IMG/VR virus record: IMGVR_UViG_3300035703_000061
Location: 1-64,000 of that record
Length of the DNA: 64,000 bases
Reading direction: 5' to 3' (one strand)
Origin: a virus
The notes beneath the pieces were generated by a model. That model was not told where the DNA came from. It worked only from the letters and a program-made list of their open reading frames with translations, and did no database searches. The position numbers and the translations under genes were made by a program. Shown here piece after piece: positions 3,389-16,550 of the stretch (position 1 is its first letter; each line of letters begins with the position of its first letter).

Positions 3389-3513
3389 GCGTAGCCCCCA
3401 AGGGCGAAGCGCTTCGATCATCAGGCCAAGATTCCCTAAAAAGAATAGGCCAAACGAGACCTCAAGCCTCCGCAATGCCGCTCAAGCCAGAGTGGAGCCC
3501 CCAAGGGCGGAAC
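3389..3513 (+). repeat. two copies of a GNA/GNA internal-loop hairpin element with CTCAAGC boxes
   Basis: GC-GTA-GCCC-CCAA-GGGC-GAA-GC (3389-3410) and GT-GGA-GCCC-CCAA-GGGC-GGA-AC (3492-3513); CTCAAGCC at 3461 and 3481. Confidence 0.8.
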
Positions 3514-3587
3514 GTTCCAGACGAAAGGCAAACAAGCCTTCAAACAAAAAGAACGTTACTAACATTGCAAAGGAATCTTCCTAAACA

Positions 3588-3824
3588 ATGCTTCTCCCGC
3601 CTAAGCCAGTAGATAAGCTTCCATTGCTGGAGCACAATGGGGCAGAAATTCTGCCTATTGTTCATCACGGTTTTTCTAAGCCAAGCAAAGGGCCGCAACC
3701 AGCGGCCCGTACGCTTTATGGAGCCCGTGATAGCAATGGCGAACGCCATTGGCGAGGAAGCCTGCATGAAATCCAACAATTGATTGATAGTGGTTTCGCA
3801 GTGCAGGAGCAAATCAATGCGTGA
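3588..3824 (+). CDS. hypothetical protein
   Basis: 78-aa ORF, first of a run of coupled small + strand genes. Confidence 0.7.
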   Translation: MLLPPKPVDKLPLLEHNGAEILPIVHHGFSKPSKGPQPAARTLYGARDSNGERHWRGSLHEIQQLIDSGFAVQEQINA

Positions 3825-4032
3825 ATTTTGCACCAATCCAAAAGATTGCATGGCTCTTGCTTACGAGCGTGAAGCTGAGCATGAAATGGACGCTCGTGGA
3901 CTAGATGCTGCCTATGCAGAAATTGTCGATAGCTTCCACAAAGAAATGGAAGAATTCGTCCGCAAGTATTGCCCGAAAAAGCTAAATGAATTCGATGACT
4001 TACTAGAAAAAGCTTTCTGGCAGTATCATTGA
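3817..4032 (+). CDS. hypothetical protein
   Basis: ATG overlaps the previous gene end; acidic helical protein. Confidence 0.65.
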   Translation: MREFCTNPKDCMALAYEREAEHEMDARGLDAAYAEIVDSFHKEMEEFVRKYCPKKLNEFDDLLEKAFWQYH

Positions 4033-4035
4033 ACC

Positions 4036-4209
4036 ATGGTTAAATCAGGCGGCGATCTTCAACGTCTTATTGACGATGCCATTCGTCGCCATGAAATCAG
4101 AGTGGCAATAACGAGCGGCGCTTTAGGCGCCGCTCTTCTGCTAGGAACGTTTCACGCAATTGCATTGCTTCGTCATGAATTACACTCCCTCGCCATTGTC
4201 GCAAGCTGA
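4036..4209 (+). CDS. small putative membrane protein (not in ORF track)
   Basis: Translated by hand: MVKSGGDLQRLIDDAIRRHEIRVAITSGALGAALLLGTFHAIALL...; one hydrophobic segment. Confidence 0.55.
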   Translation: MVKSGGDLQRLIDDAIRRHEIRVAITSGALGAALLLGTFHAIALLRHELHSLAIVAS

Positions 4210-4345
4210 ATGGGAAGAGCTTTGCATGTTGAAACGAGCCATTGATGATGCTCCGGCCACTGTCGTGGCCTCGCGCATGGAGCGCTTCACAGAATTATTT
4301 GTTCGTACTCTCCATGGAAAGGGAGATACAATGAGGGGCTCATAG
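4175..4345 (+). CDS. hypothetical protein, cyanophage-type
   Basis: LSQAEWEELCMLKRAIDDAPATV...FTELFVR. Confidence 0.6.
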   Translation: MNYTPSPLSQAEWEELCMLKRAIDDAPATVVASRMERFTELFVRTLHGKGDTMRGS

Positions 4346-4387
4346 CCAAAAGCTTCGCTTACAATGCGAGAAGCAAAATAATAAAGA

Positions 4388-5143
4388 ATGCCTCGTCCTG
4401 AGATTGAGTTTGCTACGCCTGAAGAAGAAGAAGCTTATGCAAGAAATGCTTTAGCGAAGGCGGGAGTACCAATCACGCAATATGAAGCCATTCGAGAACA
4501 CAAATCACATGGCGGCAACCGTGGTGCCGGCATTTATACCAAAGAAATGCTTGGCGTTAGGCGATGGATGGTGCAAGAGCTTCTCGCCGCAAAAATGAGC
4601 AATCGTCAGATTGCGAATGTTCTAAAACTAAGCAAAGAAACAGTTAATGGTGATCGCCACTTCAATAGGGATCTCTATACGCAAGAAATTCTAAAGAATC
4701 AAGATACGCACAGAGCGCGTCTCTTAAAAGAACAAATGGAGCTAAAAGACTTAGCTCTTCGTAGCTTTGAAACCAGTAAGCGCAAGAAAACAGTGACCAT
4801 CATGGACGGAGGTGCCGATGGTGGGAAGGAGATGGTGAAGATCGAAGAAAGCGCTGGCGACGCATCGTTCCTTAACGTGGCCAAGAACTCCTTGGTGGAG
4901 CAAGCGAAACTGCTTGGTCTCAATGAAATTAAGCAAGTGGAGAACCAGGACACGTCCTACAGGAAGTTCCTGAAAGATTTGTCTTCCACTATTGAAAAAG
5001 AGAAGGAAGCCAAGGCTACGGAAGAGCGCAGGGGCAATTCTCTGCTTGCGTCCGCTGAGACCATTAGTTTCGATGCGGAGCCAGAAAATGAGCCACTTCC
5101 TGACGCCATGCCTTTACAAACAATTAACGAAGACGACTATTGA
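4388..5143 (+). CDS. probable terminase small subunit (HTH protein)
   Basis: HTH (MSNRQIANVLKLSKETVNGD), then helical hairpin and GDASFL...EQAKLLGL motif typical of HTH-type small terminases. Confidence 0.6.
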   Translation: MPRPEIEFATPEEEEAYARNALAKAGVPITQYEAIREHKSHGGNRGAGIYTKEMLGVRRWMVQELLAAKMSNRQIANVLKLSKETVNGDRHFNRDLYTQEILKNQDTHRARLLKEQMELKDLALRSFETSKRKKTVTIMDGGADGGKEMVKIEESAGDASFLNVAKNSLVEQAKLLGLNEIKQVENQDTSYRKFLKDLSSTIEKEKEAKATEERRGNSLLASAETISFDAEPENEPLPDAMPLQTINEDDY

Positions 5144-5168
5144 CAATGGTCCCTTGCGGGACCATTAT
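5140..5168 (+). promoter_or_regulatory. sigma70-type promoter with a palindrome filling the spacer
   Basis: TTGACA-N17-CATTAT; AATGGTCCC-TTGC-GGGACCATT overlaps it. Confidence 0.6.
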
Positions 5169-5191
5169 GAGCCCATCTCCTCTTCCTTCTA

Positions 5192-5617
5192 TTGGACGCT
5201 TTCGATTCCGTTGATCAGTTTCTCCGCCAGGCAGTAGCTGCCAAGGACGGCAAGCGGCATGCCATTGGCGCTTCACTTTCGCCTCATCTGCAAGACAATG
5301 GCACCGTAGGCGTTCCTCCCAAACTGGCTGGCACCATTGAAGCCATGCTGCAGAAGCATGGTGATGAAGCCTACCGGCAAATTGCGCTGTTCTGCCTGGG
5401 TAAATGGTTTGAACTTCACATTGGCATGTTCGAGGAGCTGATTAGCGAGGAGCCCAGCATGGCCTGTAGCTGCCTAATGGACTCCACTCGCATTGCAGAC
5501 TCCCTCCATCTCCTGTCGGAAATCAATAGCATTGGAGGCGACGGCGGATGGCGCACAATGCTTGAGGAAACGCTCAGTCAGCACATTCTTGAAGAGCTTG
5601 AGGAGGAACGTTGGTAA
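5192..5617 (+). CDS. hypothetical protein
   Basis: 141-aa ORF, TTG start. Confidence 0.7.
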   Translation: MDAFDSVDQFLRQAVAAKDGKRHAIGASLSPHLQDNGTVGVPPKLAGTIEAMLQKHGDEAYRQIALFCLGKWFELHIGMFEELISEEPSMACSCLMDSTRIADSLHLLSEINSIGGDGGWRTMLEETLSQHILEELEEERW

Positions 5618-5787
5618 TGGCTTCCACTTGTCGCACTTTTCTCATCACTACTTATGAAGGGAAGAAAATCGCCCTCGGGGCGATTTCCGCAAAACAAGCT
5701 GAACACTTTATGCTTGCAATGCGTCCTGACGTGAAGATTGCAATGATTGAGGAAATCCCTCCACTTCCTGAAAATCCTAGACTTTGA
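5617..5787 (+). CDS. hypothetical 56-aa protein (not in ORF track)
   Basis: TAATG coupling; MASTCRTFLITTYEGKKIALGAISAKQAEHF... Confidence 0.6.
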   Translation: MASTCRTFLITTYEGKKIALGAISAKQAEHFMLAMRPDVKIAMIEEIPPLPENPRL

Positions 5788-5956
5788 ACTTTTCCTTTCA
5801 TTGCACTGACGCCACTGGCCACCTTCGTGTTGGAGCATTTTATTTCCAATGGAGAAACACTTTTATCCTTGGCACTATGTACGACGGCTTTGGTGAAAGC
5901 CTTTTAATTGTTGGCCCTCAACCTTTCCGTTTCGGACATTACCGTTTCGTTTAATT

Positions 5957-6379
5957 ATGGACCTTCAGCTCTCTTTTATGGAAGAGCATTCTCTTTCTCG
6001 CATGGTTCACATTTGTATTCCTCCGCAATTGCAAGAAGAAGCACGAGCCTTGGCCATGGAAAATCCTCCCATTCATCCTGCATGGCGAAAGGCTCAAGCC
6101 AGAGGAAAGCATTTCGTGATTGCCACTAATGAGCTTGACGACATCACAGAGCTTGCAGACTTTGCTCGCACCAACATTGAAGAGCCTGAAGGGCCAATGA
6201 GCAAGCCAAAGCGCCAGGCCTATCAAATTCTGTTGGACAGGGCATTCAGGCATGCAGAGCTGGAGCCTATGGGTTCCTGCCATGCCATTGCTACCAAATG
6301 GCGAGACAAGCCTTTGCCGATCACCAAGAACCTGAGCATCGCCACTCAGGCCTTGCGTAAGCCATCGCGGGCTTTATGA
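5957..6379 (+). CDS. hypothetical protein
   Basis: 140-aa ORF. Confidence 0.7.
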   Translation: MDLQLSFMEEHSLSRMVHICIPPQLQEEARALAMENPPIHPAWRKAQARGKHFVIATNELDDITELADFARTNIEEPEGPMSKPKRQAYQILLDRAFRHAELEPMGSCHAIATKWRDKPLPITKNLSIATQALRKPSRAL

Positions 6380-6436
6380 ACAAATGTTACAGCATCAGAA
6401 CGCCCCCCTTGATGGGGGCCTTTTTAATGGCACACT

Positions 6437-6814
6437 ATGCACATGCGACGGCGAACGTCGCTAGTCCTCTGCTTTACCATCGTGACCGTTTCGTTCAACC
6501 ACACGCTTCAAGACCAGCCCATCTGTGCCTTCAAGGATGGAGAATTGGCAATGTTTTTCGGCCAGCCCATGGTAACGCGCAGTTTCTCTATGGCAGATCT
6601 GCAGGAATACATTTGCACCATTGAAAAGGCCATTGATGAAGAGCCTAATCTTGTGCAGCAGATGGCTCTTAACCGCATTCGATGCGCCTTTGTTGTGAGC
6701 CTAGAAATGCTTAAAGAGAATCACGAAGAGCTTTGCAATGAAGCCCCCACTGGCGCTGATTTTGAAGAATATCTCATGAACTACAACAATGCAATTAAAG
6801 GAGGCAAGCTGTGA
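6437..6814 (+). CDS. hypothetical protein
   Basis: ORF after hairpin 6404-6426; true start may be downstream. Confidence 0.65.
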   Translation: MHMRRRTSLVLCFTIVTVSFNHTLQDQPICAFKDGELAMFFGQPMVTRSFSMADLQEYICTIEKAIDEEPNLVQQMALNRIRCAFVVSLEMLKENHEELCNEAPTGADFEEYLMNYNNAIKGGKL

Positions 6815-6990
6815 CATCTACTCCCAAAGATAGGCTCACTGACGCTATTTTTGAATACTTTGATAATGACAATGGTGACCAGCTCATTAAAGATCTCGCG
6901 GAATTATTGGCGCAAGATCGGGATCATCATCTTAGGAAATTTCGCGCTCTCGCTCATGCCTACGAACAACTCTTTGGCCAGTCATTCTGA
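6811..6990 (+). CDS. hypothetical 59-aa protein (not in ORF track)
   Basis: GTGA coupling with GGAGG upstream; MTSTPKDRLTDAIFEYFDND... Confidence 0.6.
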   Translation: MTSTPKDRLTDAIFEYFDNDNGDQLIKDLAELLAQDRDHHLRKFRALAHAYEQLFGQSF

Positions 6991-7159
6991 GCCTTTTGAT
7001 TATGACCATGATAAGCGAACAGTGATGCAGCTTGCAACGGCTAAGCTTGAGCGGAGGCTCCAGTATTGGCGCGAGAAAGAGCAGGAGGAAATCCTCAAGC
7101 GCTATCGTCTCATCACTTCTATTTAACTCAGTGCCAAGTTCTACACACTTCTCTTTCTC

Positions 7160-7489
7160 ATGACTGACAACAACCATCCGATTACTCCGCCACCTGAGCT
7201 GGTGCGACAATGGTGGGATGGCACTCACGGTGCCTTCTACGAGTTTGAAGCAGTCGTCACTCAAGCCGCCCGCTGGGGCGCTGACCAGGAGTTGGATGCG
7301 TGCTGTGACCATTTGAAACGCTCATGGTCTCCAACCGTCACTATTGACAACCTCCGCGCCGCCAGGCGCCCCAAGCCGCCAAATTTGAAAGAGCTGGCGC
7401 TGGAAGCTTTGAATAAAATTGAGGACAACAAAGCAACTTACCTTGACTCTTCTATTGTCCGCCGTGCACTGGAGCAACTCAATGATTGA
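7160..7489 (+). CDS. hypothetical protein, cyanophage 'HPITPPPELV' family
   Basis: HPITPPPELVRQW...AARWGADQELDACC...LRAARRPKPP motif set. Confidence 0.75.
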   Translation: MTDNNHPITPPPELVRQWWDGTHGAFYEFEAVVTQAARWGADQELDACCDHLKRSWSPTVTIDNLRAARRPKPPNLKELALEALNKIEDNKATYLDSSIVRRALEQLND

Positions 7490-7509
7490 CAACAACCATC
7501 CGATCAATG

Positions 7510-7761
7510 TCTGATCAACTAATGACTAAACAACTTTCACCCGCTGCTCAATCCGTCCTTGATGCTTTCTTTGCCGGCGATTGGCAAGATGAACCACTGC
7601 ACTCAAACCTCGCCGCCGCTCTTCGTGCTGCTGCGGATCAAGTGGTGCCAAGAACTCCGCCACCTAAGTTTGCTCCTCATTACGAAGAGGGTATTTGGGA
7701 CGGTAAAGATGACGCTAGGAGCCAGCTCCTAGCTATTGCCTCCGAACTGGAAGCCCAGTAG
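7510..7761 (+). CDS. hypothetical protein, cyanophage 'LSPAAQAVL' family
   Basis: LSPAAQSVLDA...LAAALRAAADQVVP...LLAIASELE. Confidence 0.75.
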   Translation, partial: SDQLMTKQLSPAAQSVLDAFFAGDWQDEPLHSNLAAALRAAADQVVPRTPPPKFAPHYEEGIWDGKDDARSQLLAIASELEAQ

Positions 7762-7773
7762 TCACACCCTCTT

Positions 7774-8035
7774 ATATCTAAACTCCCACCCACTGCTCAA
7801 GCGGTAATCAACGCGGCCATGAAGGATGCTTACGGGCGACCTTCAACTTATTTCTATTCTCGACTGGCTACCGCCTTTCGCGCTGCTGTCGATGAAGTGG
7901 CTCCAGAAAAAAACCATTGAAGACATCGACTACGTGCATCAAAACTACGTTGATGGGTATAGGGATGCTCTTTACGAGATCCTAATTATTGCTAATGAGC
8001 TTGAACTTGTAAGCATTTCCGACACGTTGCATTGA
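7774..8035 (+). pseudogene. disrupted paralogue of the preceding gene
   Basis: ATA in place of ATG, then SKLPPTAQAVINAA...LATAFRAAVDEVAP; similarity continues in another frame after the A7 run at 7907-7913 (...ILIIANELE). Confidence 0.7.
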
Positions 8036-8163
8036 CGTGTTAAACATTCCGGAATTTCCGGACAGTTAAGCCAAGCCTCAGCTAGCGAGCCTTCGCCTAG
8101 CATTTGTTTAATTATCAGGATTTCTAATAAACGCTATTTATTGGGATTCTTGATAAAGCCCTA

Positions 8164-8322
8164 TTACGGGGCTTTTTTCTTTGCCCACGTAGCGTCACCA
8201 GGCAATGGTTCAAGGCCTACATTCCACGTATCAAAATCATCTTCATTACGCGGATCGTACATTTCTCCACTTGCCATCCATCGCTTAAGCCTTTCTTTTT
8301 CCTGCTCTACAGAAAGCTTCAT
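8164..8322 (-). CDS. hypothetical 52-aa protein (not in ORF track)
   Basis: Translated by hand: MKLSVEQEKERLKRWMASGEMYDPRNEDDFDTW...; TATGCT -10 at 8348-8343. Confidence 0.6.
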   Translation of the reverse strand: MKLSVEQEKERLKRWMASGEMYDPRNEDDFDTWNVGLEPLPGDATWAKKKAP

Positions 8323-8351
8323 AACAATCTCCTAGCCCTTTAAGCATAGGC

Positions 8352-8561
8352 AAAAGAAAGGGGGCCTAAAGCCCCCTTTCTCTTGTGACTTCCGATGAGA
8401 CCTTTGCTCTCAAAGCTTCTAGAGAGGGTGATGCGCCTCGCAGGAGACCATGCAAAACTCCTTGGCTAGATCGTTCGATCTTCGCCCGCATCACCAGCCC
8501 CGTCCACCCTTACGGCTCGCCCGGAGACGAGAGCAGCAATTAAGCCGCTAGGACCAACCAC
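8352..8561 (-). ncRNA. putative stand-alone structured ncRNA (~210 nt), family unknown
   Basis: Extended -10 TGnTATGAT (8576-8568), nested stems with cUCCGg and GUAA tetraloops, 5'/3' closing stem, terminator 8382-8352, no credible ORF. Confidence 0.7.
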
Positions 8562-8675
8562 TGCAAAATCATAACACCTTGTGGCTTGCTCGGCACTAAG
8601 CGCTCATTTCATGGCACAATGGGCATTGCCTTGTCGGAGACGGCATGGCCCTCGCTAGTTCTTTCGTACTAATTG

Positions 8676-9023
8676 ATGAAACGTCTTTTTCTTTCTCTTC
8701 TGCTGCTTTGCCCCTTACAAGCGCAAGCAGCTCTTGAATGTGGCTATGCCTCGCATTATGGCGTGGGGGATTTTTACCATGGCAGGCGCACTGCCAGCGG
8801 CTCCACGTTCGATGCTTATTCCCTTACTGCTGCTCATCCCTGGCTTCCATTTGGCACGCGACTGCGTGTGAAGAACCGTAACAATGGAAAGTCAGTGACA
8901 GTGACAGTCGTTGATCGCGGCCCATACTACGGAGGCCGAATCTTGGATTTGTCCTACGGCAGCTTCTCTCGTATTGCTTCCCCTTCTCAAGGCGAAGCTT
9001 CCATCTGCATCTCAAGACTATGA
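8676..9023 (+). CDS. rlpA: RlpA-family (DPBB) lytic transglycosylase-like protein with signal peptide
   Basis: ASHYG...GRRTASG...TAAHPWLPFGT...VVDRGPY...ILDLS motifs; N-terminal signal peptide. Confidence 0.9.
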   Translation: MKRLFLSLLLLCPLQAQAALECGYASHYGVGDFYHGRRTASGSTFDAYSLTAAHPWLPFGTRLRVKNRNNGKSVTVTVVDRGPYYGGRILDLSYGSFSRIASPSQGEASICISRL

Positions 9024-9208
9024 AAGACGCAACTTCATTCCTGCTGGTAAGCCTTGTCATTGGACTCGGCGCATTTGCCATTGTCGCCTCTCCTAACGTG
9101 ACGGCCAACAAGGAAGGACTTGACAAGTGTCTGCAGCTCCATCCCGAACGCTACTGTCGCATTGCCAATGGCTTCCCCGTGGCAACGCTTGACAGCCAGA
9201 CCAAATAG
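9020..9208 (+). CDS. small membrane-anchored protein
   Basis: ATGA coupling; N-terminal hydrophobic helix; C-x8-C. Confidence 0.65.
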   Translation: MKDATSFLLVSLVIGLGAFAIVASPNVTANKEGLDKCLQLHPERYCRIANGFPVATLDSQTK

Positions 9209-9217
9209 GCCTACAGT
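9189..9217 (+). promoter_or_regulatory. sigma70-type promoter
   Basis: TTGACA-N17-TACAGT. Confidence 0.7.
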
Positions 9218-9300
9218 CCCCTCGGTCGATGGGAAAGGAGCTTCGCAAGAGGCTCCTCCTTTTCTTCCGCTTCCATACCACTCCTGGCGACAGGCTCCTC

Positions 9301-9579
9301 ATGGACAAAACCTCCCGCATCAAACAGTTTATTTTCAATGCTGGCCACAGCATTGTTTCTGTGGAATTTATCAAGGCTGATGGTTCCATTCGTCGCATTC
9401 AATTCAATCCTTGGGACACTAAGGAAATCAAAGGTACGGGCACAGCAGTAAAGAAGCCCAGCATTGTGCGCTGCCGCGACTTCTCCATTGCTCGCAAGGA
9501 AGGGCAAGGTGCTTGGCGTTCGTTTGATTGTGAGCGCGTGGTGAGCATCAAAGCCAACGGTCAAACCCTCGCATTCTGA
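9301..9579 (+). CDS. WYL-like SH3 beta-barrel protein
   Basis: VSVEFIKADGSIRR...D...AWRSF..ERV motif; start taken at ATG 9301. Confidence 0.7.
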   Translation: MDKTSRIKQFIFNAGHSIVSVEFIKADGSIRRIQFNPWDTKEIKGTGTAVKKPSIVRCRDFSIARKEGQGAWRSFDCERVVSIKANGQTLAF

Positions 9580-10371: not shown

Positions 10372-10421
10372 TGTAACGAAAAGCTACAGGCCCCGGAAAC
10401 GGGGCCTTTTTCTTGTATTGT
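10372..10421 (+). promoter_or_regulatory. early-gene cassette header 1 (direct-repeat box + hairpin + -10)
   Basis: TGTAACGAAAAGCTACA, AGGCCCCG-GAAA-CGGGGCCTTTTT, TATTGT. Confidence 0.7.
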
Positions 10422-10461
10422 TCTTCTCACAGGCGGCGACGCCTTCCTTCGCTTTCCTTCC

Positions 10462-10842
10462 ATGGCAACCATCAACCACTCCGTCGAGCAGCTCACCGGC
10501 CCTGGCTACTGGACTAAGTTCGAGGGCCTTGAGCGCGTCAGGCTCACGATCACTGTGCCCAACTGGCACGAGCCTTTCCCTTCTCAGCAGAGAGCAGGCG
10601 CCACCAACCCTCGTGAACTGGAGCTGCACGGCCTTCTCCACGTTTGCCAAAGCTGGTACATCAATGGTCCTGTGATGGATCAATGGACCATCAGCACTAT
10701 GTGGGGGCCAATCAAGGTGCCTGCTGGCACTCGTATTGTCTCTGAGCACCTGCCTGAGAAGTGGGCAGCATGGGAGCAGGAAGCCAGCGAAGGCAAAAAA
10801 CAGTGGTGGGCCTATTCCAATGGTCGCACTAGCTTCTGTTAA
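10462..10842 (+). CDS. hypothetical protein
   Basis: 126-aa Trp-rich ORF after cassette header. Confidence 0.75.
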   Translation: MATINHSVEQLTGPGYWTKFEGLERVRLTITVPNWHEPFPSQQRAGATNPRELELHGLLHVCQSWYINGPVMDQWTISTMWGPIKVPAGTRIVSEHLPEKWAAWEQEASEGKKQWWAYSNGRTSFC

Positions 10843-10887
10843 GCATTGTTACAGCGGGGCCGATTACGGCCCCTTCCAAATTATTGT
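10837..10887 (+). promoter_or_regulatory. early-gene cassette header 2
   Basis: TGTTAAGCATTGTTACA, GGGGCCG-ATTA-CGGCCCC, TATTGT. Confidence 0.7.
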
Positions 10888-10908
10888 TCTCTTGTTCGCA
10901 ACCAAACC

Positions 10909-11148
10909 ATGCACCGCCCCTACGAAGGCCACCGCGAAGATCCTTATCTCGCCAAGCTTGAGGCTGATCGTCAGGCACAACACAGTGGCTATGGCATTCA
11001 GCAATATCTGTGTGCCGATGGTTCCCGTAAGTGGGAAGCGTACGGCTGGGAGCGCATTACAGAGCTTTCCATTCGCACTACTTCCTACGGCATCTTTGAC
11101 CACAAGTGGCAGGCTGAACAGTATTTCAACTCCATCATCAACGGTTGA
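10909..11148 (+). CDS. hypothetical protein
   Basis: AAACCATG start after cassette header. Confidence 0.7.
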   Translation: MHRPYEGHREDPYLAKLEADRQAQHSGYGIQQYLCADGSRKWEAYGWERITELSIRTTSYGIFDHKWQAEQYFNSIING

Positions 11149-11150
11149 TC

Positions 11151-11375
11151 ATGCCTTTCCCATTGTCATTTGTCTCTGAAGATGAATATGGCGTGTCTTA
11201 TGCAGCACGCACATTTTCTTCCATTGAAGAACTGTACGATGAAATTAGAACCTTGGAAGAGCTGCTTGATGAAAGCTCCGCCAGCAGGGGCTATATCATC
11301 CAAGCAGCTCTAGACCAGCTCAAACAACTTGCCTTTTCCGTTGAAGACGAGCCCCTTTCCACTTACGACCAATGA
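11151..11375 (+). CDS. hypothetical protein
   Basis: Acidic small ORF in operon. Confidence 0.65.
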   Translation: MPFPLSFVSEDEYGVSYAARTFSSIEELYDEIRTLEELLDESSASRGYIIQAALDQLKQLAFSVEDEPLSTYDQ

Positions 11376-11674
11376 TCACTACCATCCGCACCTACCAAGA
11401 CAACGGCCCGTATTTCTCCTGCACAAGAGGCAGCTACCAAGCTGCCTCGCTCCAGCAGCTCATCTTCCACGTACGACAAGCGATGGAAGACCGTGAGGAT
11501 ACTATTGGCATCTTTGGCCCCGATGGGGCCTGCAGAGGCATCTGGCAGCGTGAGCTAGAGGGGCACGTGGACAGTGCTGGTGATGCCATCGTGGACCACG
11601 AAGGCTATGAGCTGCTTCGCCCTTCTACCAAGGAACAATGGATGTGGAAGCGTCTCCAGGAGCAACTGGCCTGA
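11372..11674 (+). CDS. hypothetical protein
   Basis: ATGA coupling, 100 aa. Confidence 0.7.
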   Translation: MITTIRTYQDNGPYFSCTRGSYQAASLQQLIFHVRQAMEDREDTIGIFGPDGACRGIWQRELEGHVDSAGDAIVDHEGYELLRPSTKEQWMWKRLQEQLA

Positions 11675-11675
11675 G

Positions 11676-11726
11676 TGTTAAGGATTATTACAGGCCTTGG
11701 AAACAGGGCCTTTTGGGCTGTATTGT
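11676..11726 (+). promoter_or_regulatory. early-gene cassette header 3
   Basis: TGTTAAGGATTATTACA, AGGCCTTG-GAAA-CAGGGCCTTTT, TATTGT. Confidence 0.7.
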
Positions 11727-11768
11727 TAGCAAGTCAACGAGGCGCGAGCCCCTCCTGCATTCAAAACC

Positions 11769-12050
11769 ATGACCCGCCTAATCTTCGACATGGCTTCCTT
11801 CAGCTCCACTCAGGGACAATGGTGGAAAGACCTGCGTAATGACAACACTGAGCGCCGTGTGAGTCTCGTAGCCTCCCAGATGGGCTTCTTCCTTTGGACT
11901 GCTGATTTCCGCGAAGCACGCAGCGGCAAGCACATCACGCAGAAGTTCTTTTGCACAAAGCCTGATAGTGAAGAGCCCGTAGCGCTGTTTGAGCACGTGC
12001 AGGATCGTCAAACATGGCTTGAGAAGGAATGGGCTAAGCAGGCCGTTTGA
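11769..12050 (+). CDS. hypothetical protein
   Basis: AAACCATG start; followed by hairpin 12061-12090. Confidence 0.7.
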   Translation: MTRLIFDMASFSSTQGQWWKDLRNDNTERRVSLVASQMGFFLWTADFREARSGKHITQKFFCTKPDSEEPVALFEHVQDRQTWLEKEWAKQAV

Positions 12051-12099
12051 TTTAGCAAAAGGGGCGCCCCGAAGCGCCCCGCTCTTTTCTTGTCTGACA

Positions 12100-12285
12100 A
12101 TGGAATCTCTTGCTGCTTTTGCTGAAGCCATTCTTCAGCTTCAAAAAACCATCGATTCTTTCAATAAAATGCGTTCTGACACAACTGAAGATGAATGGGA
12201 ATCGCTACTGAACACTCCCATTGTTTGTCAATTTATTGATGAGATGGTTGAGCTTGAGAATATTCTTGAAGAGCATTTCTCATGA
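12100..12285 (+). CDS. hypothetical protein
   Basis: ATG 12100, helical acidic protein. Confidence 0.6.
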   Translation: MESLAAFAEAILQLQKTIDSFNKMRSDTTEDEWESLLNTPIVCQFIDEMVELENILEEHFS

Positions 12286-12440
12286 TTCTCATTGATTTCT
12301 TTGATGCTGACTGCTGCAAAGGCACCGAATTGACAGAGGGCTGGTATTGGTATGACGATGATGATGAAAATGGCGTGGGAGGGCCTTATGAAAGCGAAGA
12401 AGCTGCCGTTAAGGCAGCTTTTGATGGGCATGGCTGGTAA
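12282..12440 (+). CDS. hypothetical 52-aa protein (not in ORF track)
   Basis: ATGA coupling; EGWYWY...GGPYESEEAA motif. Confidence 0.65.
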   Translation: MILIDFFDADCCKGTELTEGWYWYDDDDENGVGGPYESEEAAVKAAFDGHGW

Positions 12441-12527
12441 AGCTTAAAATAATTGTTAGCATGGCGAGACGATGCGGGATGCCAGTCCCGTAACGTCTCT
12501 AACCACTGCCAAAAGGACGGTTTGGCC

Positions 12528-13145
12528 ATGGCTAAAAGCAATCATAGCGGCGTACCAGAAGGGTTCAAGGAGATCCCAGGCTACGCAGGCAAGTATTTCA
12601 TCAATGAGCAGGGGCAGGTTTGGAGCGTTGCCAAGCGTGCCTTAATGAGTCAACAATGGGATGAAAAGCATCCTTATCCTTGGTTGCTCTTGCTATGCGA
12701 AGACGGCAAACGCAGGACAATTTGTGTTCATCGTCTCATGGGCAGAACTTGGCTGCCTCTCCCTTCGGGGAAAATTGGATCTAAACGCGGAGAGTACTGC
12801 GTTAATTACAAAGATGGCAATAAGCAAAACAATCATCTAGACAACCTTGAATGGGTGACGGCGGAAGAAAACATAAAACATGCTTGGCGGACAGGGCTTA
12901 ATAAGTCCATTGGAGAAAAATCTCCCTGCGCAAAAGTAAATGCGCTCCAAGTTAGGGCAATACGAGAATTGTTTGCGCAAGGAAGGTCTCTTGATTACTT
13001 GGCTAATTCTTTCGGTCTATCCGCGCAGGGAATTCATGATATTTGCAGGTATCGGCGTTGGAAGCGTCAGGACCATGATTTATTGCATCAAATAAAGAAG
13101 CGTTCATCTTCTATATTCGTTGACGCGATGATTGAATTACTGTAA
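12528..13145 (+). CDS. NUMOD4-HNH homing endonuclease-like protein, catalytic His apparently replaced
   Basis: FKEIPGYAGKYFINEQGQV (NUMOD4), VHRLM, VNYKDGNKQNNHLDNLEW, C-terminal HTH. Confidence 0.85.
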   Translation: MAKSNHSGVPEGFKEIPGYAGKYFINEQGQVWSVAKRALMSQQWDEKHPYPWLLLLCEDGKRRTICVHRLMGRTWLPLPSGKIGSKRGEYCVNYKDGNKQNNHLDNLEWVTAEENIKHAWRTGLNKSIGEKSPCAKVNALQVRAIRELFAQGRSLDYLANSFGLSAQGIHDICRYRRWKRQDHDLLHQIKKRSSSIFVDAMIELL

Positions 13146-13156
13146 AACATCTGAAA

Positions 13157-13285
13157 AATCGGCCAGCCTTGTATCAAGCAAGGCTAGCTTTGTATCACAA
13201 GAAAATTCTGAATCGGCTGGGTTTGTATAATAAAAATTTTGAATCGGCCAGCTTTGTATCTATTGAAATCGGCTGACTTTGTATC
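13157..13285 (+). repeat. five iteron-like direct repeats (AATCGGCYRGCTTTGTATC consensus)
   Basis: Copies at 13157, 13181 (partial), 13211, 13242 and 13267 with AT-rich spacers. Confidence 0.85.
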
Positions 13286-13357
13286 TATAGTGCTATACAA
13301 TTTAGCAACATTATCACGCTGCTGTTGTATTCCTCGCTGCGCATATCCGCATATGAT

Positions 13358-13506
13358 CATACAACGATATCGTTGTATGGCGCATCCCGCATAGCCGCAT
13401 AGTAGTACAGGCGTACTATAGTACAGGCGTACTATGTGCCAATCCTCAATTGTCACATAGTACGTTTGTACCAATAAGCTGAGCCTATATGACAGATAAG
13501 CTGAGC
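13358..13506. repeat. palindrome and short tandem repeat cluster
   Basis: Perfect 22-bp palindrome CATACAACGATATCGTTGTATG (13358-13379); TAGTACAGGCGTACTA x2 (13403-13434); ATAAGCTGAGC x2. Confidence 0.85.
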
Positions 13507-13588
13507 TTATGTTTCGTTTTGTTACAAAAGCTTGCACACGAGATCGCGATATCACGATGCCGTTATGTCGTGATGATACGTTTGCCAA

Positions 13589-13690
13589 TATCACGCTAGC
13601 GTTGTTTGCATTATCACGCTTGCGTTGTTTGCATTATCACGCTTGCGTTGTTTGTGGTTCTGCGCTTGCGTTGTTTGCATTATCACGATG
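13589..13690 (+). repeat. 23-bp tandem repeat TATCACGCTWGCGTTGTTTGCAT
   Basis: About four copies; isolated TATCACG boxes also near 13312 and 13550. Confidence 0.85.
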
Positions 13691-13991
13691 GCGCTATACG
13701 ATGGCCTGATTGCCTGATTGTTGCGGAATGTTGCGATGGTTGACCTATGGGCGGCCCTGGTGATATCTGCGCGCGCGCTTGCGTGCGCGGTTCCTTTATT
13801 GGCGGTTGGCATGTTTGGCGCTTATGGGAGCCCGTACCATGCCCGACCCTGCGGCGTCAATACAACGTCCCGCCATGGTGTGCGGAAATAAAATCGGCCA
13901 CGTTTGCGCACCGTTGCGCCGATCGTGGGATTTATGCTTCTCACATCGGATGGAAGCGATTCCGCCGATCATCTCCAAACCGCTTCAAGCC

Positions 13992-14225
13992 ATGAAGACA
14001 GAACTCGCAGAGTATTTGGCGAACACTGACAGTCGCACCTTTAATCGTCAAAAGGCGCGGCAAATACCAATGCTTACTGATGAAGAATTCTGCGCAGCAT
14101 TCTTGCTGTTTAGCGAGGGTATGCGAGTGAACCCTGAATTGTCGCGCAGTCCCGCAGTTATGGGCGCGCTGAATGCTTTTAGAAATGCAAAGCAAATCAG
14201 CGTTAAGTTGCCCGGCGAACAGTAA
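13992..14225 (+). CDS. hypothetical protein
   Basis: ATG 13992 after a C/A-rich leader. Confidence 0.65.
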   Translation: MKTELAEYLANTDSRTFNRQKARQIPMLTDEEFCAAFLLFSEGMRVNPELSRSPAVMGALNAFRNAKQISVKLPGEQ

Positions 14226-14269
14226 GCAATCCGTCAAGCATTCTGCAAACATTCTCACAAACAAACATC

Positions 14270-15181
14270 ATGTCTACCCTCATCAATTCCCGCGCTAAGC
14301 TCCCCTCCAACCTCGTTGCATTGTGCAAACAATATAAAATCAGCGCCCGTGATTTGCTTAGCACTAACCCTAAAACTGAGAAGAGTAAAGTTCAAACCTA
14401 CATTCTTCACCTTGCGCCTGCAGATACTTCCGGCGTGAATGTTTGCGCCGGTGCTGGTAATTGTCGCAAGATTTGCCTACATTTTGCAGGCAATCCCGTA
14501 TACATGACAAACAAACAGGCCGCCAGAATCCGCCGTACTTTAGCCTATGCTGCCGATCCTCAGAGATTTGCACGGCTGATCGTTTGCGCAATCCTTGGCA
14601 AGCTTGCCAAACATCCCGGCGAATCCATTGCAATCCGCTTAAATGGAACGTCTGACATAGCTTGGGAGAATGTAGATTTTACGATCGACGTAGAGTTTGC
14701 AACATTCTGCCGCCGTAAGTTCGGCATTGATCTGCCAATCGGCAAGCGCAACATTCTCGAGATATTTAATTATATTGCAAACAATGGTGGCCCTAAGGTG
14801 CAATTCTATGATTACACCAAAATCAAGCGTAATTGGGCAGAATGTCAGCGCCTTGGCTACCACCTGACCTTTAGCTTCGACGGCTGGGGCAATGCCGCCA
14901 ATCTTAAAATCTGCCGAGATGCCTTGCAAGCTGGCGTTAACGTTGCCGCAGCGTTCAATCTCAAACGTGGCCAATCTTTGCCCGATTGCATCGATGGCAG
15001 CCGCTTCAATCTCCCGCAGCGTTGTCTCTTTACTGGTGAAGTGCTGGCAGTTCTGAACGGTGACCTTACGGACTTCCGCCCGTCTGACGCAAGCGGCGGC
15101 CACATTGTTGGCTTGCGCTTCAAGTTACCGCACGGCATTAACTACTCTGAAGCCGATAAGCAAGCATTCTGTATTGCCTGA
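14270..15181 (+). CDS. phage Gp88-like protein (CxxxxxCxxxC, radical-SAM-like)
   Basis: LHLAPA...NVCAGAGNCRKICL...IRLNGTSDI...FYDYTK...YHLTFS...GDLTDFR...IVGL. Confidence 0.8.
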   Translation: MSTLINSRAKLPSNLVALCKQYKISARDLLSTNPKTEKSKVQTYILHLAPADTSGVNVCAGAGNCRKICLHFAGNPVYMTNKQAARIRRTLAYAADPQRFARLIVCAILGKLAKHPGESIAIRLNGTSDIAWENVDFTIDVEFATFCRRKFGIDLPIGKRNILEIFNYIANNGGPKVQFYDYTKIKRNWAECQRLGYHLTFSFDGWGNAANLKICRDALQAGVNVAAAFNLKRGQSLPDCIDGSRFNLPQRCLFTGEVLAVLNGDLTDFRPSDASGGHIVGLRFKLPHGINYSEADKQAFCIA

Positions 15182-15243
15182 CAATCAGTTTCCGAGAGGC
15201 TCCCACAAGCGCCCACAAGCGCCCCACAACGAAGCCAGCCACT

Positions 15244-15266
15244 AGGGCCCATCAGGGCCCTTTTTA
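15244..15266 (+). terminator. intrinsic terminator
   Basis: AGGGCCC-ATCA-GGGCCCT followed by T-run. Confidence 0.75.
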
Positions 15267-15549
15267 ATGCCTGCAGGGCTCATAGGATGGGGCACTGGCG
15301 GAGCTGCCAGGATCGGCACAGACTGAAGGATTGGAGAATGTAGGGAATATCCTGACATTTGCAGTGCAAATATCACCCTCAATTCTCAATAAGGCGCGTT
15401 ATTGAGAACGCTCTCACTTTGTAAAGTATTGTGAAGCGGTATCCGTTGACACAGCGCAGTAGCACGGGGGTGTGCGTGTGGGGGGCTGCGGTATATGCTT
15501 CGAAATGTGGCGCCATTTTTCACCTGCTTTTTCGTCCTAGTATTTATAC

Positions 15550-16068
15550 CTAGCACTTGCTCTTTAGCGCGTTAGCCAGCATTTTGATTTCATCTAAAGA
15601 TGCAGAATTTTTAACAGCATTGGCTCTGTGGCTAATGATCCATACATTACCCCTTACATATCCCTTGTTGTTATCAATGCGGTCCAGGGAGGGGCTATTA
15701 GGCAGAGGCTTGGCTTTCATTTCTCTACAACAGGACCATTCCAATGGTGCGCCAAACACGGGGCAATTAGATGTGACAAGAGACCGTACGTAGTCTACGT
15801 CAATGTTGAATTCCATTCCCTTACTTTTAGCTCTAGCTCTAGCTGCACATGTCATGTACATAGTTTGCATTTTTACTGGATTTTGCTTTTCCCACCGAGT
15901 ATTCTTCTCTTCGTGGCAGATTTTGCAAAAACCATCCAAGCCGTCGCGGTTGGCCTTCCGCTTGAAGAACTCAGAAAGAGGCTTGACCATTCCACACTTT
16001 GAGCATTTTTTTTTGCCTTGGCTTGCAAGAGAAAGCTGCTCCGCAAGCTGCTGATTATTCAAGCTCAT
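15550..16068 (-). CDS. Zn-ribbon + HNH-type endonuclease
   Basis: KKCSKC...FCKIC; CPVFG...PSLDRIDNNKGYVRGNVWIISHRANAVK. Confidence 0.85.
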   Translation of the reverse strand: MSLNNQQLAEQLSLASQGKKKCSKCGMVKPLSEFFKRKANRDGLDGFCKICHEEKNTRWEKQNPVKMQTMYMTCAARARAKSKGMEFNIDVDYVRSLVTSNCPVFGAPLEWSCCREMKAKPLPNSPSLDRIDNNKGYVRGNVWIISHRANAVKNSASLDEIKMLANALKSKC

Positions 16069-16162
16069 GCCAGAGTTCAATTTGAAAACACTAACAAGCC
16101 AAAACTCAGTGGCGCTATGCCGAAAGCAAGTCGAAGACGCCGCTTGAGGCATCTCTAGAGAT

Positions 16163-16550
16163 CTCAAGCAATCTTCTAAGCCAATGGAGACGCCCTAAAG
16201 GCGTCGGAATGATGCACCAATAAAGCAAGCGCCAACGATTCGCGCATTTCTCCTTTCCATCGTTCTTAATGCCAGAAAGCGGCCCTTAAAGGGGCCGCTG
16301 CTCAGAAGATGAAGATGGAAACCAATGATTTTTCGCTTTTCCCAGCAGCAAGCACACTTTCAGCGACTCATCACATGAGACTGAGTCAGCTCTTGATCTT
16401 CTAACGCGGGCCTTTTATTTTCGCCGCTTGTCTAGAACGCTCCGCCCTTTGGGGGCTTCGCTGGTCTAGCTCATCGCGGCTAGCTTAGCCATTGTCAGTA
16501 GACGCTCCGTTCCTTTGGGGAACTCCGCTCGCTTGAGGCGCTGGCTTGAG
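16163..16550. repeat. three more copies of the GNA/GNA hairpin element, facing each other
   Basis: + copy 16184-16210; - copies 16439-16461 and 16504-16528; CTCAAGC boxes at 16163 (+), 16531 and 16544 (-). Confidence 0.8.

Follow-up and report, generated by a model that had tools for sequence, protein, structure and literature searches.

A covarying hairpin in putative transcript leaders of a freshwater cyanobacterial virus

Five hairpin copies at two loci

The window, i.e. the whole stretch of 64,000 nucleotides that was analysed, comes from a freshwater cyanobacterial virus and comprises a primase-helicase gene (734-2797), an early operon with its ATG at 3588 and, at about 16 kb, a second module from which a leader runs towards ribonucleotide reductase genes. 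The cargo near this second module is variable: it consists of an HNH/EndoVII gene (15550-16167) and a GIY-YIG gene (16693-17388), the latter being matched at 94% in the relatives G003 and G131, and G001 has a 329-aa gene; the terminase genes are located 6 kb away. Five copies of a short hairpin lie in non-coding sequence at the positions originally predicted, each reading exactly as had been proposed (scores refer to covariance model R1):

3389-3410, plus strand: c1, GC-GTA-GCCC-CCAA-GGGC-GAA-GC, 37.4 bits
3492-3513, plus strand: c2, GT-GGA-GCCC-CCAA-GGGC-GGA-AC, 43.2 bits, 103 nt after c1
16184-16210, plus strand: c3, AT-GGA-GACGCC-CTAAA-GGCGTC-GGA-AT, 43.0 bits
16439-16461, minus strand: c4, GC-GAA-GCCC-CCAAA-GGGC-GGA-GC, 41.2 bits
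16504-16528, minus strand: c5, GC-GGA-GTTCC-CCAAA-GGAAC-GGA-GC, 41.2 bits

The element withstood comparison with 100 dinucleotide shuffles. A descriptor comprising GNA, a perfect stem of 4-8 pairs, a loop of 4-6 nt, a second GNA and two outer pairs yielded 7 sites in the window versus 1.48±1.16 in the shuffles (maximum 4), and restricting the loop to C[CT]AA(A) left 5 sites versus 0. The string CCCYAARGG occurs 5 times versus 1.24 expected, a count of 5 being reached in 2 of the 100 shuffles. In addition, c4 with its 3' flank and c2 with its flank are 80% alike over 35 nt. RNA folding predicts the proposed structure for three of the five copies (c2, c4 and c5), while only the upper stem is obtained for c3 and c1 pairs in another register.

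Conservation and compensatory change among relatives

A covariance-model scan of related genomes, suggested together with the original prediction, bore it out. In the six whole records first examined (the 74-kb record of the window and five whole relatives, S-CBS4-like cyanosiphoviruses), each record yields exactly five model matches at 34.9-46.4 bits, the next best match scoring 16.4 bits, and the layout of the five copies is identical in all six. An orthologue of c1 is present in 37 of 45 primase-anchored loci, and the spacing between c1 and c2 amounts to 102-108 nt in relatives. G004, whose primase-helicase is 61% identical, has all five copies. The more distant relatives S-CBS4, G127 and G128 carry one altered hairpin only; for G127 and G128, with primase-helicases 58-59% identical, the model finds no match in one and a weak match in the other (18.6 bits, E 0.045).

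That the stems change yet keep pairing holds true within the window and much more strongly across relatives. Over 21 copies, 37 double-change cells were counted versus 10.0±3.5 in shuffles, which demonstrates compensatory change in both helices, with the outer pairs distributed as GC:14/AU:7 and UA:11/CG:10; the same pattern was obtained for 61 distinct copies near the reductase gene. For instance, orthologues of c3 feature the stems GACGGC/GCCGTC, GCCCC/GGGGC, GGCGC/GCGCC and AGCGC/GCGCT, those of c5 feature GTCCC/GGGAC, GACGC/GCGTC and GCGC/GCGC, and the outer pairs of c4 turn from GC/GC to GT/AC in G001 and G002. In one relative the stem is shorter by one base pair, lost symmetrically from both arms. 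Mismatches are without strand bias, with 1 G-T versus 2 C-A in the five inner pairs of the 61 distinct copies.

The G and A at both ends of each internal-loop strand are invariant, and one relative features a 2x2 GA/GA internal loop instead of the 3x3 form. On the contrary, the terminal loops, which had been described as conserved, are so in this genome only: orthologue loops vary between 4 nt (CCAA, CCCA, CACA, CAAA, TCAA, CCAC) and 5-6 nt (CCAAA, CCCAA, CCTAA, CCCAAA, CCAAAA) and are C-rich, then A-rich. Since such length changes of 4-6 nt would break any reading frame, the copies are non-coding. Hence the element exists, is conserved, covarying, strand-specific and non-coding, and has a fixed layout. 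Because a strand-specific structure is kept by compensatory change, the hairpin is probably read by a protein, in line with the structural signal originally proposed.

These properties bear on the idea that the element acts as double-stranded or cruciform DNA in recombination, in module exchange beside homing-endonuclease cargo or in packaging, which we regard as hardly credible. Variable cargo (HNH/EndoVII, GIY-YIG, the 329-aa gene of G001) does flank module 2. However, the GNA/GNA loop is asymmetric between strands, the other strand reading TNC/TNC, and stems that vary freely if paired are unsuited to a sequence-reading dimer; moreover, the terminase genes are 6 kb off, and in six genomes the segment that separates the opposed copies was never found inverted.

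The hairpin also fits no named element: Rfam returned nothing at gathering score and nothing relevant at E<=10, and a literature search found no described element matching it. Under stricter filters, 121 genomes of the likely host family gave no model match at E<=0.01. No host counterpart to mimic was thus found, which argues against the RNAs being decoys or sponges that soak up a defence or RNA-binding protein of the host. Several copies on one transcript, and a minus-strand RNA standing on its own, would suit such a role, but it would not require placement in operon leaders, and we consider it very improbable.

Transcriptional context of the copies

The elements surrounding the copies are as follows:

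3287-3315, plus strand: putative promoter-like element P1 (TTGATT, 17 nt, TACCCT)
3322-3587, plus strand: non-coding leader of the early operon with c1, c2 and two boxes
3461-3467 and 3481-3487, plus strand: two exact CTCAAGC boxes before c2
3525-3540, plus strand: hairpin AAGGC/GCCTT within the early-operon leader
16113-16118, plus strand: putative -10-like hexamer upstream of c3 (CGCTAT here; TACTAT/TACGCT in relatives)
16119-16150, plus strand: covarying hairpin with C-GNA-G triloop between the putative start and c3 (alignment A7)
16163-16181, plus strand: CTCAAGC (16163) and CTAAGC (16176-16181) before c3
16268-16299, minus strand: hairpin AGCGGCCC/GGGCCGCT with T-run (TTTCTGGCATT), putative terminator of the c5-c4 transcript
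16544-16550 and 16531-16537, minus strand: two CTCAAGC boxes before c5
16568-16602, minus strand: hairpin GAAGCTGC/GCAGCTTC at the putative 5' end of the minus-strand transcript
16613-16618, minus strand: TACGAT, putative -10-like hexamer of the minus-strand unit
6402, 10388, 15244, 17714 and 19188, plus strand: intergenic terminator-like sites

Conserved promoter-like hexamers lie 55-80 nt upstream of the first copy in each unit, in the same sense, and are kept where the surrounding sequence diverges. Otherwise diverged variants of the P1 region retain TTGACT-N16-TACCCT or TTGTNA-N17/18-TANANT, and TACGAT occurs in 27 of the 28 distinct upstream sequences aligned for the c3 and c5 units, the 28th extract stopping short of the site. 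These elements are weak, in that none near the copies passes a simple sigma-70 scan and P1 stays below its threshold. The RNA-library evidence comprises contigs of relatives only, one of the two runs being probably DNA.

Beside the copies, and on the same strands, lie further hairpins that covary. In the one at 16119-16150, 97.2% of cells are paired, with 18 double-change cells versus 6.6±2.8 in shuffles (pair 3-36 reading CG:10, UA:8, UG:2), and the arms of that at 16568-16602 are changed in relatives (GCGGAGC/GCTCCGC) with pairing kept. The covarying hairpin at 16268-16299, which reads GGCGGC/GCCGCC followed by CTTTTTG in relatives, has its T-run in the minus sense only, 3' of c4. The boxes, of which the original prediction had noted pairs ahead of three copies, are indeed there as exact pairs at c2 and c5 and as CTCAAGC plus CTAAGC at c3, and CTCAAGC occurs 32 times in the window versus 16.1±4.0 expected. 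Across relatives, they are conserved only loosely: those before c3 are poorly kept and read CTAGACCA, CTTCTCCA or CAAGACAA in the 28 distinct upstream sequences, and at the proximal box before c5 (C/T)TCAAGCGA is kept in most relatives.

The early-operon leader, aligned over 26 distinct relatives and folded by RNAalifold, shows a nucleotide identity of 66-81%, the same as that of neighbouring genes, and no terminator lies between c2, which ends 75 nt before the ATG, and the first gene. The leader stays together with the 78-aa and 251-aa genes as one cassette, which even S-CBS4, G127 and G128 retain; of the proteins encoded downstream of the leader, the two with the highest conservation gave no informative fold match. 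Over 4400-22000, terminator-like sites number 43 versus 20.2±4.4 in shuffles, and relatives without the motif likewise keep a terminator-like hairpin that immediately precedes the reductase ATG. Since upstream transcription is likely stopped at the terminator-like sites 2910-2931 and 15244-15261, the operons need these leaders.

The original prediction considered a priming, nicking or packaging role possible and placed one cluster about 600 bp downstream of the primase-helicase gene. The distance stands, as c1 starts 592 nt past the stop codon, but between the two lie small ORFs on the minus strand, a promoter-like element and, at 2910-2931, a hairpin that looks like a terminator in both directions. 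The proposed role itself is not supported, given the shared sense of copies, promoter-like elements and downstream genes, and the T-run after the minus-strand pair, which occurs in that sense only and is an RNA feature. It is decidedly unlikely that the hairpins form in single-stranded DNA and direct the primase-helicase to origins or, in an ssi-like manner, to strand-specific priming sites. DNA can stably accommodate sheared G-A pairs and GNA loops, and the opposed arrangement of c3 (+) and c4/c5 (-) across about 230 bp, which had been noted at 16.2-16.5 kb and recurs in every relative, might extend primers outwards. Moreover, the 734-2797 protein has a zinc-finger-like motif, primase-type PHROG matches and a RepA-like AAA_25 domain, and the cumulative GC-skew minimum is broad, at about 11.5-16 kb. 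However, both copies of cluster 1 sit on the same strand, within a leader that runs from a promoter-like element to a gene, the c3-c4 region (34-62% A+T) is neither AT-rich nor furnished with iterons, and a better origin candidate, AT-rich with iteron-like 23-nt repeats, to which each of the five relatives has lineage-specific counterparts, lies 2.5 kb away at 13157-13700. In addition, G127 and G128 keep the primase-helicase, with the model match missing or weak.

Comparison with known systems and a candidate function

RSF1010 ssiA/ssiB and G4-type signals resemble module 2 in its facing hairpins on opposite strands, and a further parallel is the primase of this genome, which is fused to a RepA-like helicase domain. 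Unlike those signals, the hairpins here span only 22-27 nt, one cluster has both copies on the same strand, adjacent iterons or an AT-rich stretch are missing, and promoter-like and terminator elements run in the same sense as the copies; the primase may be of a zinc-finger/DnaG-like type, not RepB'. Dispersed intergenic phage motifs include the start-associated sequences of Cluster K mycobacteriophages and the promoter stem-loops of rV5-like phages. These are likewise short, conserved, intergenic and fixed in orientation relative to genes, but they are defined by primary sequence or enclose promoter hexamers, whereas the present hairpin is defined by covarying structure downstream of promoter-like elements.

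Tandem sheared G-A internal loops and kink-turns are protein-binding RNA motifs. The former share the invariant G and A at the loop ends, the Watson-Crick helices on both sides and the 2x2 GA/GA version of one relative, while the kink-turn definition does not apply to a symmetric loop (3x3 or 2x2) without a 3-nt bulge. The nut sites of lambda, each a boxA and a boxB hairpin used by the N antiterminator, resemble the element in several respects: a short hairpin stands behind a short box in the leader that is transcribed ahead of an early operon, each genome has several copies in the sense of their own transcripts, and intrinsic terminators punctuate the downstream operons. On the other hand, boxB has a plain 5-bp stem and a purine-rich GNRA-like pentaloop, whereas here the loop is C-rich then A-rich and the 3x3 G-A internal loop is the key feature; similarity to boxA is confined to CGCTC, in the box of c2 alone; copies stand in tandem pairs 65-105 nt apart; and neither an N-like arginine-rich protein nor sequence homology was found.

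Judged from sequence, three viral transcripts most likely carry the hairpin in their untranslated starts, where it is a candidate regulator-binding site, and an RNA-level role in the leader is probable. Such a role could also be post-transcriptional, the hairpin being a protein-binding operator or a processing/stability signal: examples are autoregulation by the product of the conserved first gene (3588-3824), a role in shielding the RNA from RNase E/J/III or exposing it to them, and a structural module of the minus-strand RNA of ~330 nt and the leaders. Every line of evidence for an element working as RNA applies here as well, and the cassette of leader, 78-aa and 251-aa genes is kept in S-CBS4, G127 and G128 with one altered hairpin. 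Likewise, the minus-strand unit has its own putative terminator, and beyond it the cargo gene is matched in G004 by short fragments only, the pattern of a free-standing small RNA. Still, none of the copies overlaps a ribosome-binding site (c2 ends well before the ATG), no RNA-binding fold is recognisable in the 78-aa protein (best Z 4.6), and a hairpin of 6-8 bp falls below the length of a classical RNase III site, so that we hold this rather unlikely.

Elongation control by a leader hairpin working like lambda nut/boxB is the mechanism we favour, though tentatively, as quite possible but short of probable; for it we infer promoters, transcription, a protein partner and an antitermination outcome. 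The hairpin would act in cis, as RNA, within the 5' untranslated regions of three transcription units of the phage, namely the early operon from 3588 with c1 and c2, a rightward unit leading to the ribonucleotide reductase genes with c3, and a convergent leftward RNA of about 330 nt with c5 and c4. In the transcript, two outer pairs would lead into a 3x3 loop, which sheared G-A pairs close, and then into a 4-6 bp stem that starts with an invariant G-C and carries the C-rich then A-rich loop. A trans-acting phage or host protein may read the purine loop and the closing pairs; a search for arginine-rich or other RNA-binding candidates found none here. Against this mechanism also speak the weakness of the promoter-like elements, the missing terminator between c2 and the first gene, the hairpin ahead of the reductase ATG that persists in relatives without the motif, the mismatches free of strand bias, and the opposed orientation of c3 versus c4 and c5, which would suit outward DNA priming as well. 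To our knowledge, cyanobacteria are devoid of Rho, and intrinsic terminators are the only terminators there. A factor bound to the nascent leader would remain with the elongating polymerase, which could then pass the many downstream intrinsic terminators. On the best reading, the hairpin constitutes a new RNA leader element and is not a member of the lambda nut/boxB family.

The phage and its hairpin element

The complete record comprises 74,485 bp, of which the window covers the first 64 kb, with a siphovirus-type gene set encompassing terminase, portal, prohead protease, tape-measure and tail genes. Megablast with window positions 1-20000 yielded no match among cultured phages; at the protein level the nearest isolate is Synechococcus phage S-CBS4 (portal 70%, primase-helicase 65% identity), and because of this relationship the host is probably a picocyanobacterium. 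In three relative loci (L038, L039 and L040), the primase-helicase match (6001-9090) is about 3.1 kb long instead of 2.0 kb, which suggests an insertion of about 1 kb, either an intein or an intervening element.

Features of the window
734-2797, primase-helicase gene (PHROG 239 and Pfam AAA_25)
3389-3410, plus strand, hairpin copy c1
3492-3513, plus strand, hairpin copy c2
16113-16118, plus strand, -10-like hexamer upstream of c3
16119-16150, plus strand, covarying hairpin with a C-GNA-G triloop at the putative 5' end of the plus unit, before c3
16184-16210, plus strand, hairpin copy c3
16439-16461, minus strand, hairpin copy c4
16504-16528, minus strand, hairpin copy c5
16568-16602, minus strand, covarying hairpin after the hexamer TACGAT, at the putative 5' end of the minus unit; its arms vary between lineages and still pair
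17742-19972, ribonucleotide reductase genes

The original prediction had described c1 to c5 as copies of one hairpin, here termed the G-A hairpin, in which outer pairs, a GNA/GNA 3x3 internal loop, a stem and a CYAA(A) loop succeed each other, and all five read exactly in this way. A descriptor comprising GNA, a perfect stem of 4-8, a loop of 4-6, GNA and two outer pairs detected 7 sites in the window compared with 1.48±1.16 (maximum 4) in 100 dinucleotide shuffles, and restriction of the loop to C[CT]AA(A) retained 5 sites versus 0 in 100 shuffles; hence the counts are well above those of dinucleotide-shuffled sequence, the check which had been named for the element. The paired CT(C)AAGC boxes reported upstream of three copies are present as well, with two exact CTCAAGC before both c2 and c5, and CTCAAGC plus CTAAGC before c3. 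The heptamer CTCAAGC occurs 32 times in the window versus 16.1±4.0 expected, and CTAGAC was dismissed as an additional box for lack of enrichment (12 versus 13.4 expected). Invariant features are G and A on both strands of the internal loop together with the first G-C pair of the stem. In addition, the outer pairs of the copies are flanked by A on the 5' side and G on the 3' side, GGC followed by an A-rich stretch is shared 13-15 nt downstream, and c2 and c4 including their 3' flanks are 80% alike across 35 nt. A sixth copy with a TGGTCC stem, suggested by the descriptor in some relatives, was dropped since it obtained no score with the covariance model. GC-rich hairpins with a CTAAA/TTAAA-type loop as in the G-A hairpins, devoid of the internal loop, are found at 8355-8381, 4113-4135 and 16278-16299; the first resembles a two-way terminator and the second lies inside ORF 4036-4209.

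That the stems change in sequence and keep their pairing is borne out by the 21 copies from which the model was built, where 82.7% of cells are paired versus 62.0±2.1% in shuffles and 37 cells are double changes versus 10.0±3.5, with the caveat that these copies had been selected with a descriptor that requires pairing. Their outer pairs are distributed as GC:14/AU:7 and UA:11/CG:10, and once the partner is shifted by one to three columns, pairing drops to 27-61% of cells. The same covariation pattern emerges from 61 distinct sequences of model-found copies near the reductase gene, the alignment of which leans to the structure of the model. Inner stems among these are GCCC, GCCCC, GACGCC, GACGGC, GGCGC, AGCGC, GTTCC, GTCCC, GACGC, GCGC and GTGC, each with its complement, while inner-pair mismatches are rare (one G-T, two C-A) and display no strand bias.

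A scan with the primase-helicase provided 45 IMG/VR loci at 61-95% identity, of which 37 contain both c1 and c2 by pattern search, 2 contain one copy and 6 none. Five of the latter extend at most 170 nt past the primase match and so cannot hold the leader; the other, L028, continues for 746 nt beyond it with no match. In L037, which has a single copy by pattern, the second copy has a stem that is one pair shorter on both arms. The anticipated conservation in related genomes became apparent when five whole relatives were fetched and searched with the model: each of the six records, including the present one, yields exactly five matches (34.9-46.4 bits), the next best match in these records and S-CBS4 scoring 16.4 bits, and the search of the whole own record returned the same five copies. 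The layout is identical in six of six records: cluster 1, behind the primase gene, consists of two copies on the plus strand spaced by 102-108 nt, and module 2, upstream of the reductase gene, of one copy on the plus strand and two on the minus strand. Furthermore, 77 of 80 reductase-anchored loci were searched, the other three residing in records already searched whole, and gave 91 further model matches. For 58 loci the sequence extends 2000 nt or more upstream of the reductase; of these, the full one-plus/two-minus set is present in 21, one plus and one minus copy in 7, the plus copy only in 4, the minus copy only in 3, and none at E<=0.1 in 23. Since three more records (88-95% complete) gave no model match or a weak one, and a fourth gave four matches, the canonical element is, among the records searched, confined to a subclade.

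Beyond this subclade, one related hairpin occupies the corresponding position of the early leader in S-CBS4 and in the records G127 and G128, but its internal loop is altered (GC-TA-CGCCCC-CCAA-GGGGCG-GA-GC in S-CBS4, GGA-GGCC-CCMA-GGCC in G127/G128), and the relative locus L257 features a 2x2 GA/GA version of the loop. These forms point to sheared G-A pairs as the structural core of the element. In kink-turns, one strand has a 3-nt bulge, after which tandem G-A and A-G pairs follow, whereas the loop here is symmetric, GNA/GNA (GA/GA in L257), and is thus no kink-turn by definition. In Rfam 15, the window matched no family for the hairpin at the gathering threshold, a single tRNA-Leu being the sole match at that score, and none of relevance at E<=10, where the best match was DUF805b (16 bits versus a gathering score of 35.6) and module 2 had none. 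A literature search likewise found no description of this hairpin motif in the part of the literature it covered, so that the statement that no named element fits holds within these sources. Short conserved hairpins in phage operon leaders that are read by a protein are a known kind of element; the literature covered describes neither this hairpin structure nor its layout in five copies nor the presence of the hairpin in cyanosiphoviruses.

Genomic context of cluster 1 and module 2

A hairpin resembling a two-way terminator (2910-2931) lies behind the primase gene, and small minus-strand ORFs come next. These ORFs (2940-3298, minus strand), which separate the primase terminator from the early promoter-like element, are divergent from the leader; one of them (2940-3098, minus strand) encodes a lysine-rich product of 52 aa, which is present in G001, G002, G003, G005, G131, G127 and G128 and has no family match. 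For the promoter-like region upstream of c1, at least four sequence variants that are unrelated to each other were encountered among the relatives, and all of them retain hexamers at promoter spacing, either TTGATT/TTGACT-16-17 nt-TACCCT or TTGTNA-17-18 nt-TANANT. Alignment is possible in all relatives for the stretch that begins about 25 nt upstream of c1 and extends to the ATG at 3588, with near-invariant blocks at both hairpins. The early leader is 66-81% identical to that of four relatives, which equals the adjacent genes, and the notion of an ultra-conserved leader was hence rejected. RNAalifold recovered both hairpins and little else in this leader, with a compensatory change in 1 of 33 pairs since there is hardly any variation among the orthologous stems of c1 and c2. 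An ORF overlapping both copies (3372-3584) was rejected as coding, since the loop comprises 4, 5 or 6 nt among close orthologues and such changes shift the reading frame.

Module 2 resides in a block of about 520 bp (16082-16630) that is conserved in six of six genomes and has differing flanks: an HNH/EndoVII-type gene on the left is replaced by an unrelated 329-aa minus-strand gene in G001, and the GIY-YIG gene on the right is matched in G003 only among the first five relatives, and additionally in G131. The window has three free-standing homing-endonuclease-like genes, EndoVII/HNH (15550-16167, minus strand), GIY-YIG of the T5orf172 type (16693-17388, plus strand) and HNH (12453-13145, plus strand), the first two of which flank module 2 and are found in some relatives only. 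On the plus strand, the hairpin at 16119-16150 is represented by 20 distinct sequences, in which 97.2% of cells are paired and 18 cells are double changes versus 6.6±2.8; U-G pairs occur and A-C pairs are absent. Its outer pair exhibits perfectly correlated changes, GCT...AGC versus GCC...GGC. On the minus strand, 27 of 28 distinct upstream sequences contain the hexamer TACGAT (16618-16613), which the 28th extract is too short to reach; the hexamer is followed in order by the hairpin at 16568-16602, the boxes, c5, c4, about 140 nt and a hairpin with a T-run. This last hairpin has its T-run in the minus sense only and covaries as well (GCGGCCC/GGGCCGC versus GGCGGC/GCCGCC). In each of the three units, the first G-A hairpin lies about 59-78 nt past the putative start. 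Since none of the promoter-like elements near the copies passes a strict sigma-70 scan, the promoters of the three units are putative and derived from conservation. Further downstream, a GC-rich hairpin with a T-run (17714-17730) reaches to within 11 nt of the reductase ATG at 17742. All five reductase-anchored loci that were inspected, including four devoid of G-A hairpins, share this arrangement with other stems, and a comparable hairpin precedes the reductase ATG of S-CBS4.

RNA signal or priming site

An RNA-level role of the hairpin is favoured by several features of its sequence context. All five copies share the sense of the nearest promoter-like element, and c1 to c3 also that of the downstream genes; a terminator-like hairpin with a sense-specific T-run follows c4; other covarying hairpins adjoin the copies on the same strand; and the GNA/GNA purine loop is present on one strand only. 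Moreover, transcription from upstream is probably halted at the hairpins 2910-2931 and 15244-15261, in which case the early and reductase operons would need these leaders, and this counts in favour of an RNA role. N4-type hairpin promoters go along with a giant virion RNA polymerase gene; the ORFs of more than 1000 aa in the window (first 64 of 74 kb) encode tape-measure and tail proteins. Two sequencing runs with small word shares furnished contigs of relatives only, and one of them is probably DNA. The contig of the RNA library spans 3418-4290 and says nothing on the transcript start, because the probably-DNA run begins at nearly the same place; low cover over 2669-3335 and module 2 in these runs was not counted as a finding.

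A less likely alternative is that the hairpins are DNA priming signals for the primase-helicase, as originally proposed. The phage indeed encodes a primase fused to a RepA-like helicase domain, and extension of primers at c3 (plus) and at c4 and c5 (minus) would proceed outwards, as in a bidirectional origin. In RSF1010, the ssi sites of oriV consist of two opposite-strand hairpins next to iterons and an AT-rich stretch; here, opposed hairpins occur in module 2 only, which has a plain base composition between its copies (A+T 0.34-0.62) and is devoid of iterons, with repeats 2.5 kb away. In cluster 1 both copies lie on the same strand, which speaks against an origin. In addition, G127 and G128 keep the primase-helicase at 58-59% identity and nevertheless have no model match or one at 18.6 bits. 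A different origin candidate is also available in the AT-rich region 13157-13700 with its 23-nt tandem repeats, which has lineage-specific counterparts in five relatives. This region reaches an A+T of 0.68 and contains three AATCGGCCAGCTTTGTATC-like repeats (13157-13288) and about five tandem 23-nt repeats (13563-13700), and five of five whole relatives carry tandem repeats with periods of 21-59 and differing sequences at the syntenic place. Iterons are usually lineage-specific in sequence, and 13157-13700 is a candidate iteron-type replication origin. GC skew has a broad minimum at 11.5-16 kb and is not decisive.

A possible terminator-resistance device

The RNA-level reading gains substance from the region downstream of cluster 1, where 43 terminator-like sites were counted between 4400 and 22000 versus 20.2±4.4 in shuffles, clear intergenic ones on the plus strand being located at 6402, 10388, 15244, 17714 and 19188. 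Given this enrichment, a device rendering polymerase resistant to terminators would make biological sense. In such a mechanism, the G-A hairpin in the leaders of the three transcription units would recruit a trans-acting factor, which in turn would make the host polymerase resistant to the intrinsic terminators punctuating the phage operons. It is thus put forward as a tentative possibility, and a rather doubtful one at present, that freshwater S-CBS4-like cyanophages use an undescribed RNA-guided transcription control proceeding from leader hairpin via the factor to terminator-resistant polymerase.

Lambda-type nut sites (boxA plus boxB) provide a comparison. As to placement, nut sites lie in the transcript between the early promoter and the first terminators; here, same-sense promoter-like hexamers are located 55-80 nt upstream and terminator-like sites downstream. 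The stem of boxB runs uninterrupted for about 5 bp and carries a purine-rich GNRA-like pentaloop, whereas the helix here is interrupted by a 3x3 internal loop and closed by CCAA, CCAAA, CTAAA or similar loops. Likewise, boxA follows the consensus CGCTCTT(T)A a few nt upstream, whereas the boxes here read CTCAAGC, CTAAGC or CTAGACC, with CGCTCAAG at c2 only. As to a small arginine-rich N-like protein encoded nearby, a scan of ORFs for arginine-rich stretches retrieved shadow ORFs or non-conserved matches only. Since the defining features of boxA and boxB were looked for and not found, nut/boxB describes a possible working mode, and the G-A hairpin is not a member of the nut family.

With respect to a partner, PHROG, Pfam and NCBIfam scans of the early genes were uninformative. 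The best-conserved early proteins are the 78-aa first gene product of the leader's operon and a 251-aa protein (4388-5143), both of which are kept even in genomes with an altered hairpin. The former has a pI of 7.0 and is modelled with four strands and a helix (pLDDT 77.5), and the latter with an HTH, a helix of about 50 residues and a beta hairpin (pLDDT 65.6); neither model gave a significant fold match. The 251-aa protein is the orthologue of an S-CBS4 gene annotated 'Rnase E', for which no evidence of a ribonuclease was found; a sequence search of solved structures revealed no relative, and residues 57-91 gave a weak match to a LuxR/PedR-type HTH. Its predicted architecture loosely recalls small terminase subunits or winged-helix regulators. 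In phylogenetic profiling, four small genes (3817-4032, 5611-5787, 9583-9789 and 9789-9977) are restricted to motif-bearing genomes, a profile that is not clean because the 'negative' genomes carry the altered hairpin. Host mimicry was considered as well and rejected: a pattern scan of bacterial genomes hit 120 stretches, mostly in GC-rich genomes, and these were taken as chance. The model found weak matches only, in a tandem repeat of a Polyangiaceae contig, with no match in one Synechococcus genome and none in 121 genomes of its family under stricter filters.

Taken together, this is a real and clean element whose function can be tested directly. More than 100 natural sequence variants with compensatory changes support a short and sharply defined motif, which marks three candidate transcription units and predicts a specific RNA-protein (or ssDNA-protein) contact; simple oligonucleotides suffice for testing it, and it may serve as bait for the partner protein. 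A search for processive antitermination in cyanophages found nothing in that part of the literature which it covered, and the proposed mechanism, if true, would be the first such system described for a cyanophage, as far as known. To our knowledge, cyanophage gene regulation is poorly understood, and for picocyanobacterial siphoviruses we know of almost nothing on the ordering of early and middle transcription. If the partner modifies elongation, the system would reveal the way in which phages govern transcription where the host relies on intrinsic terminators.
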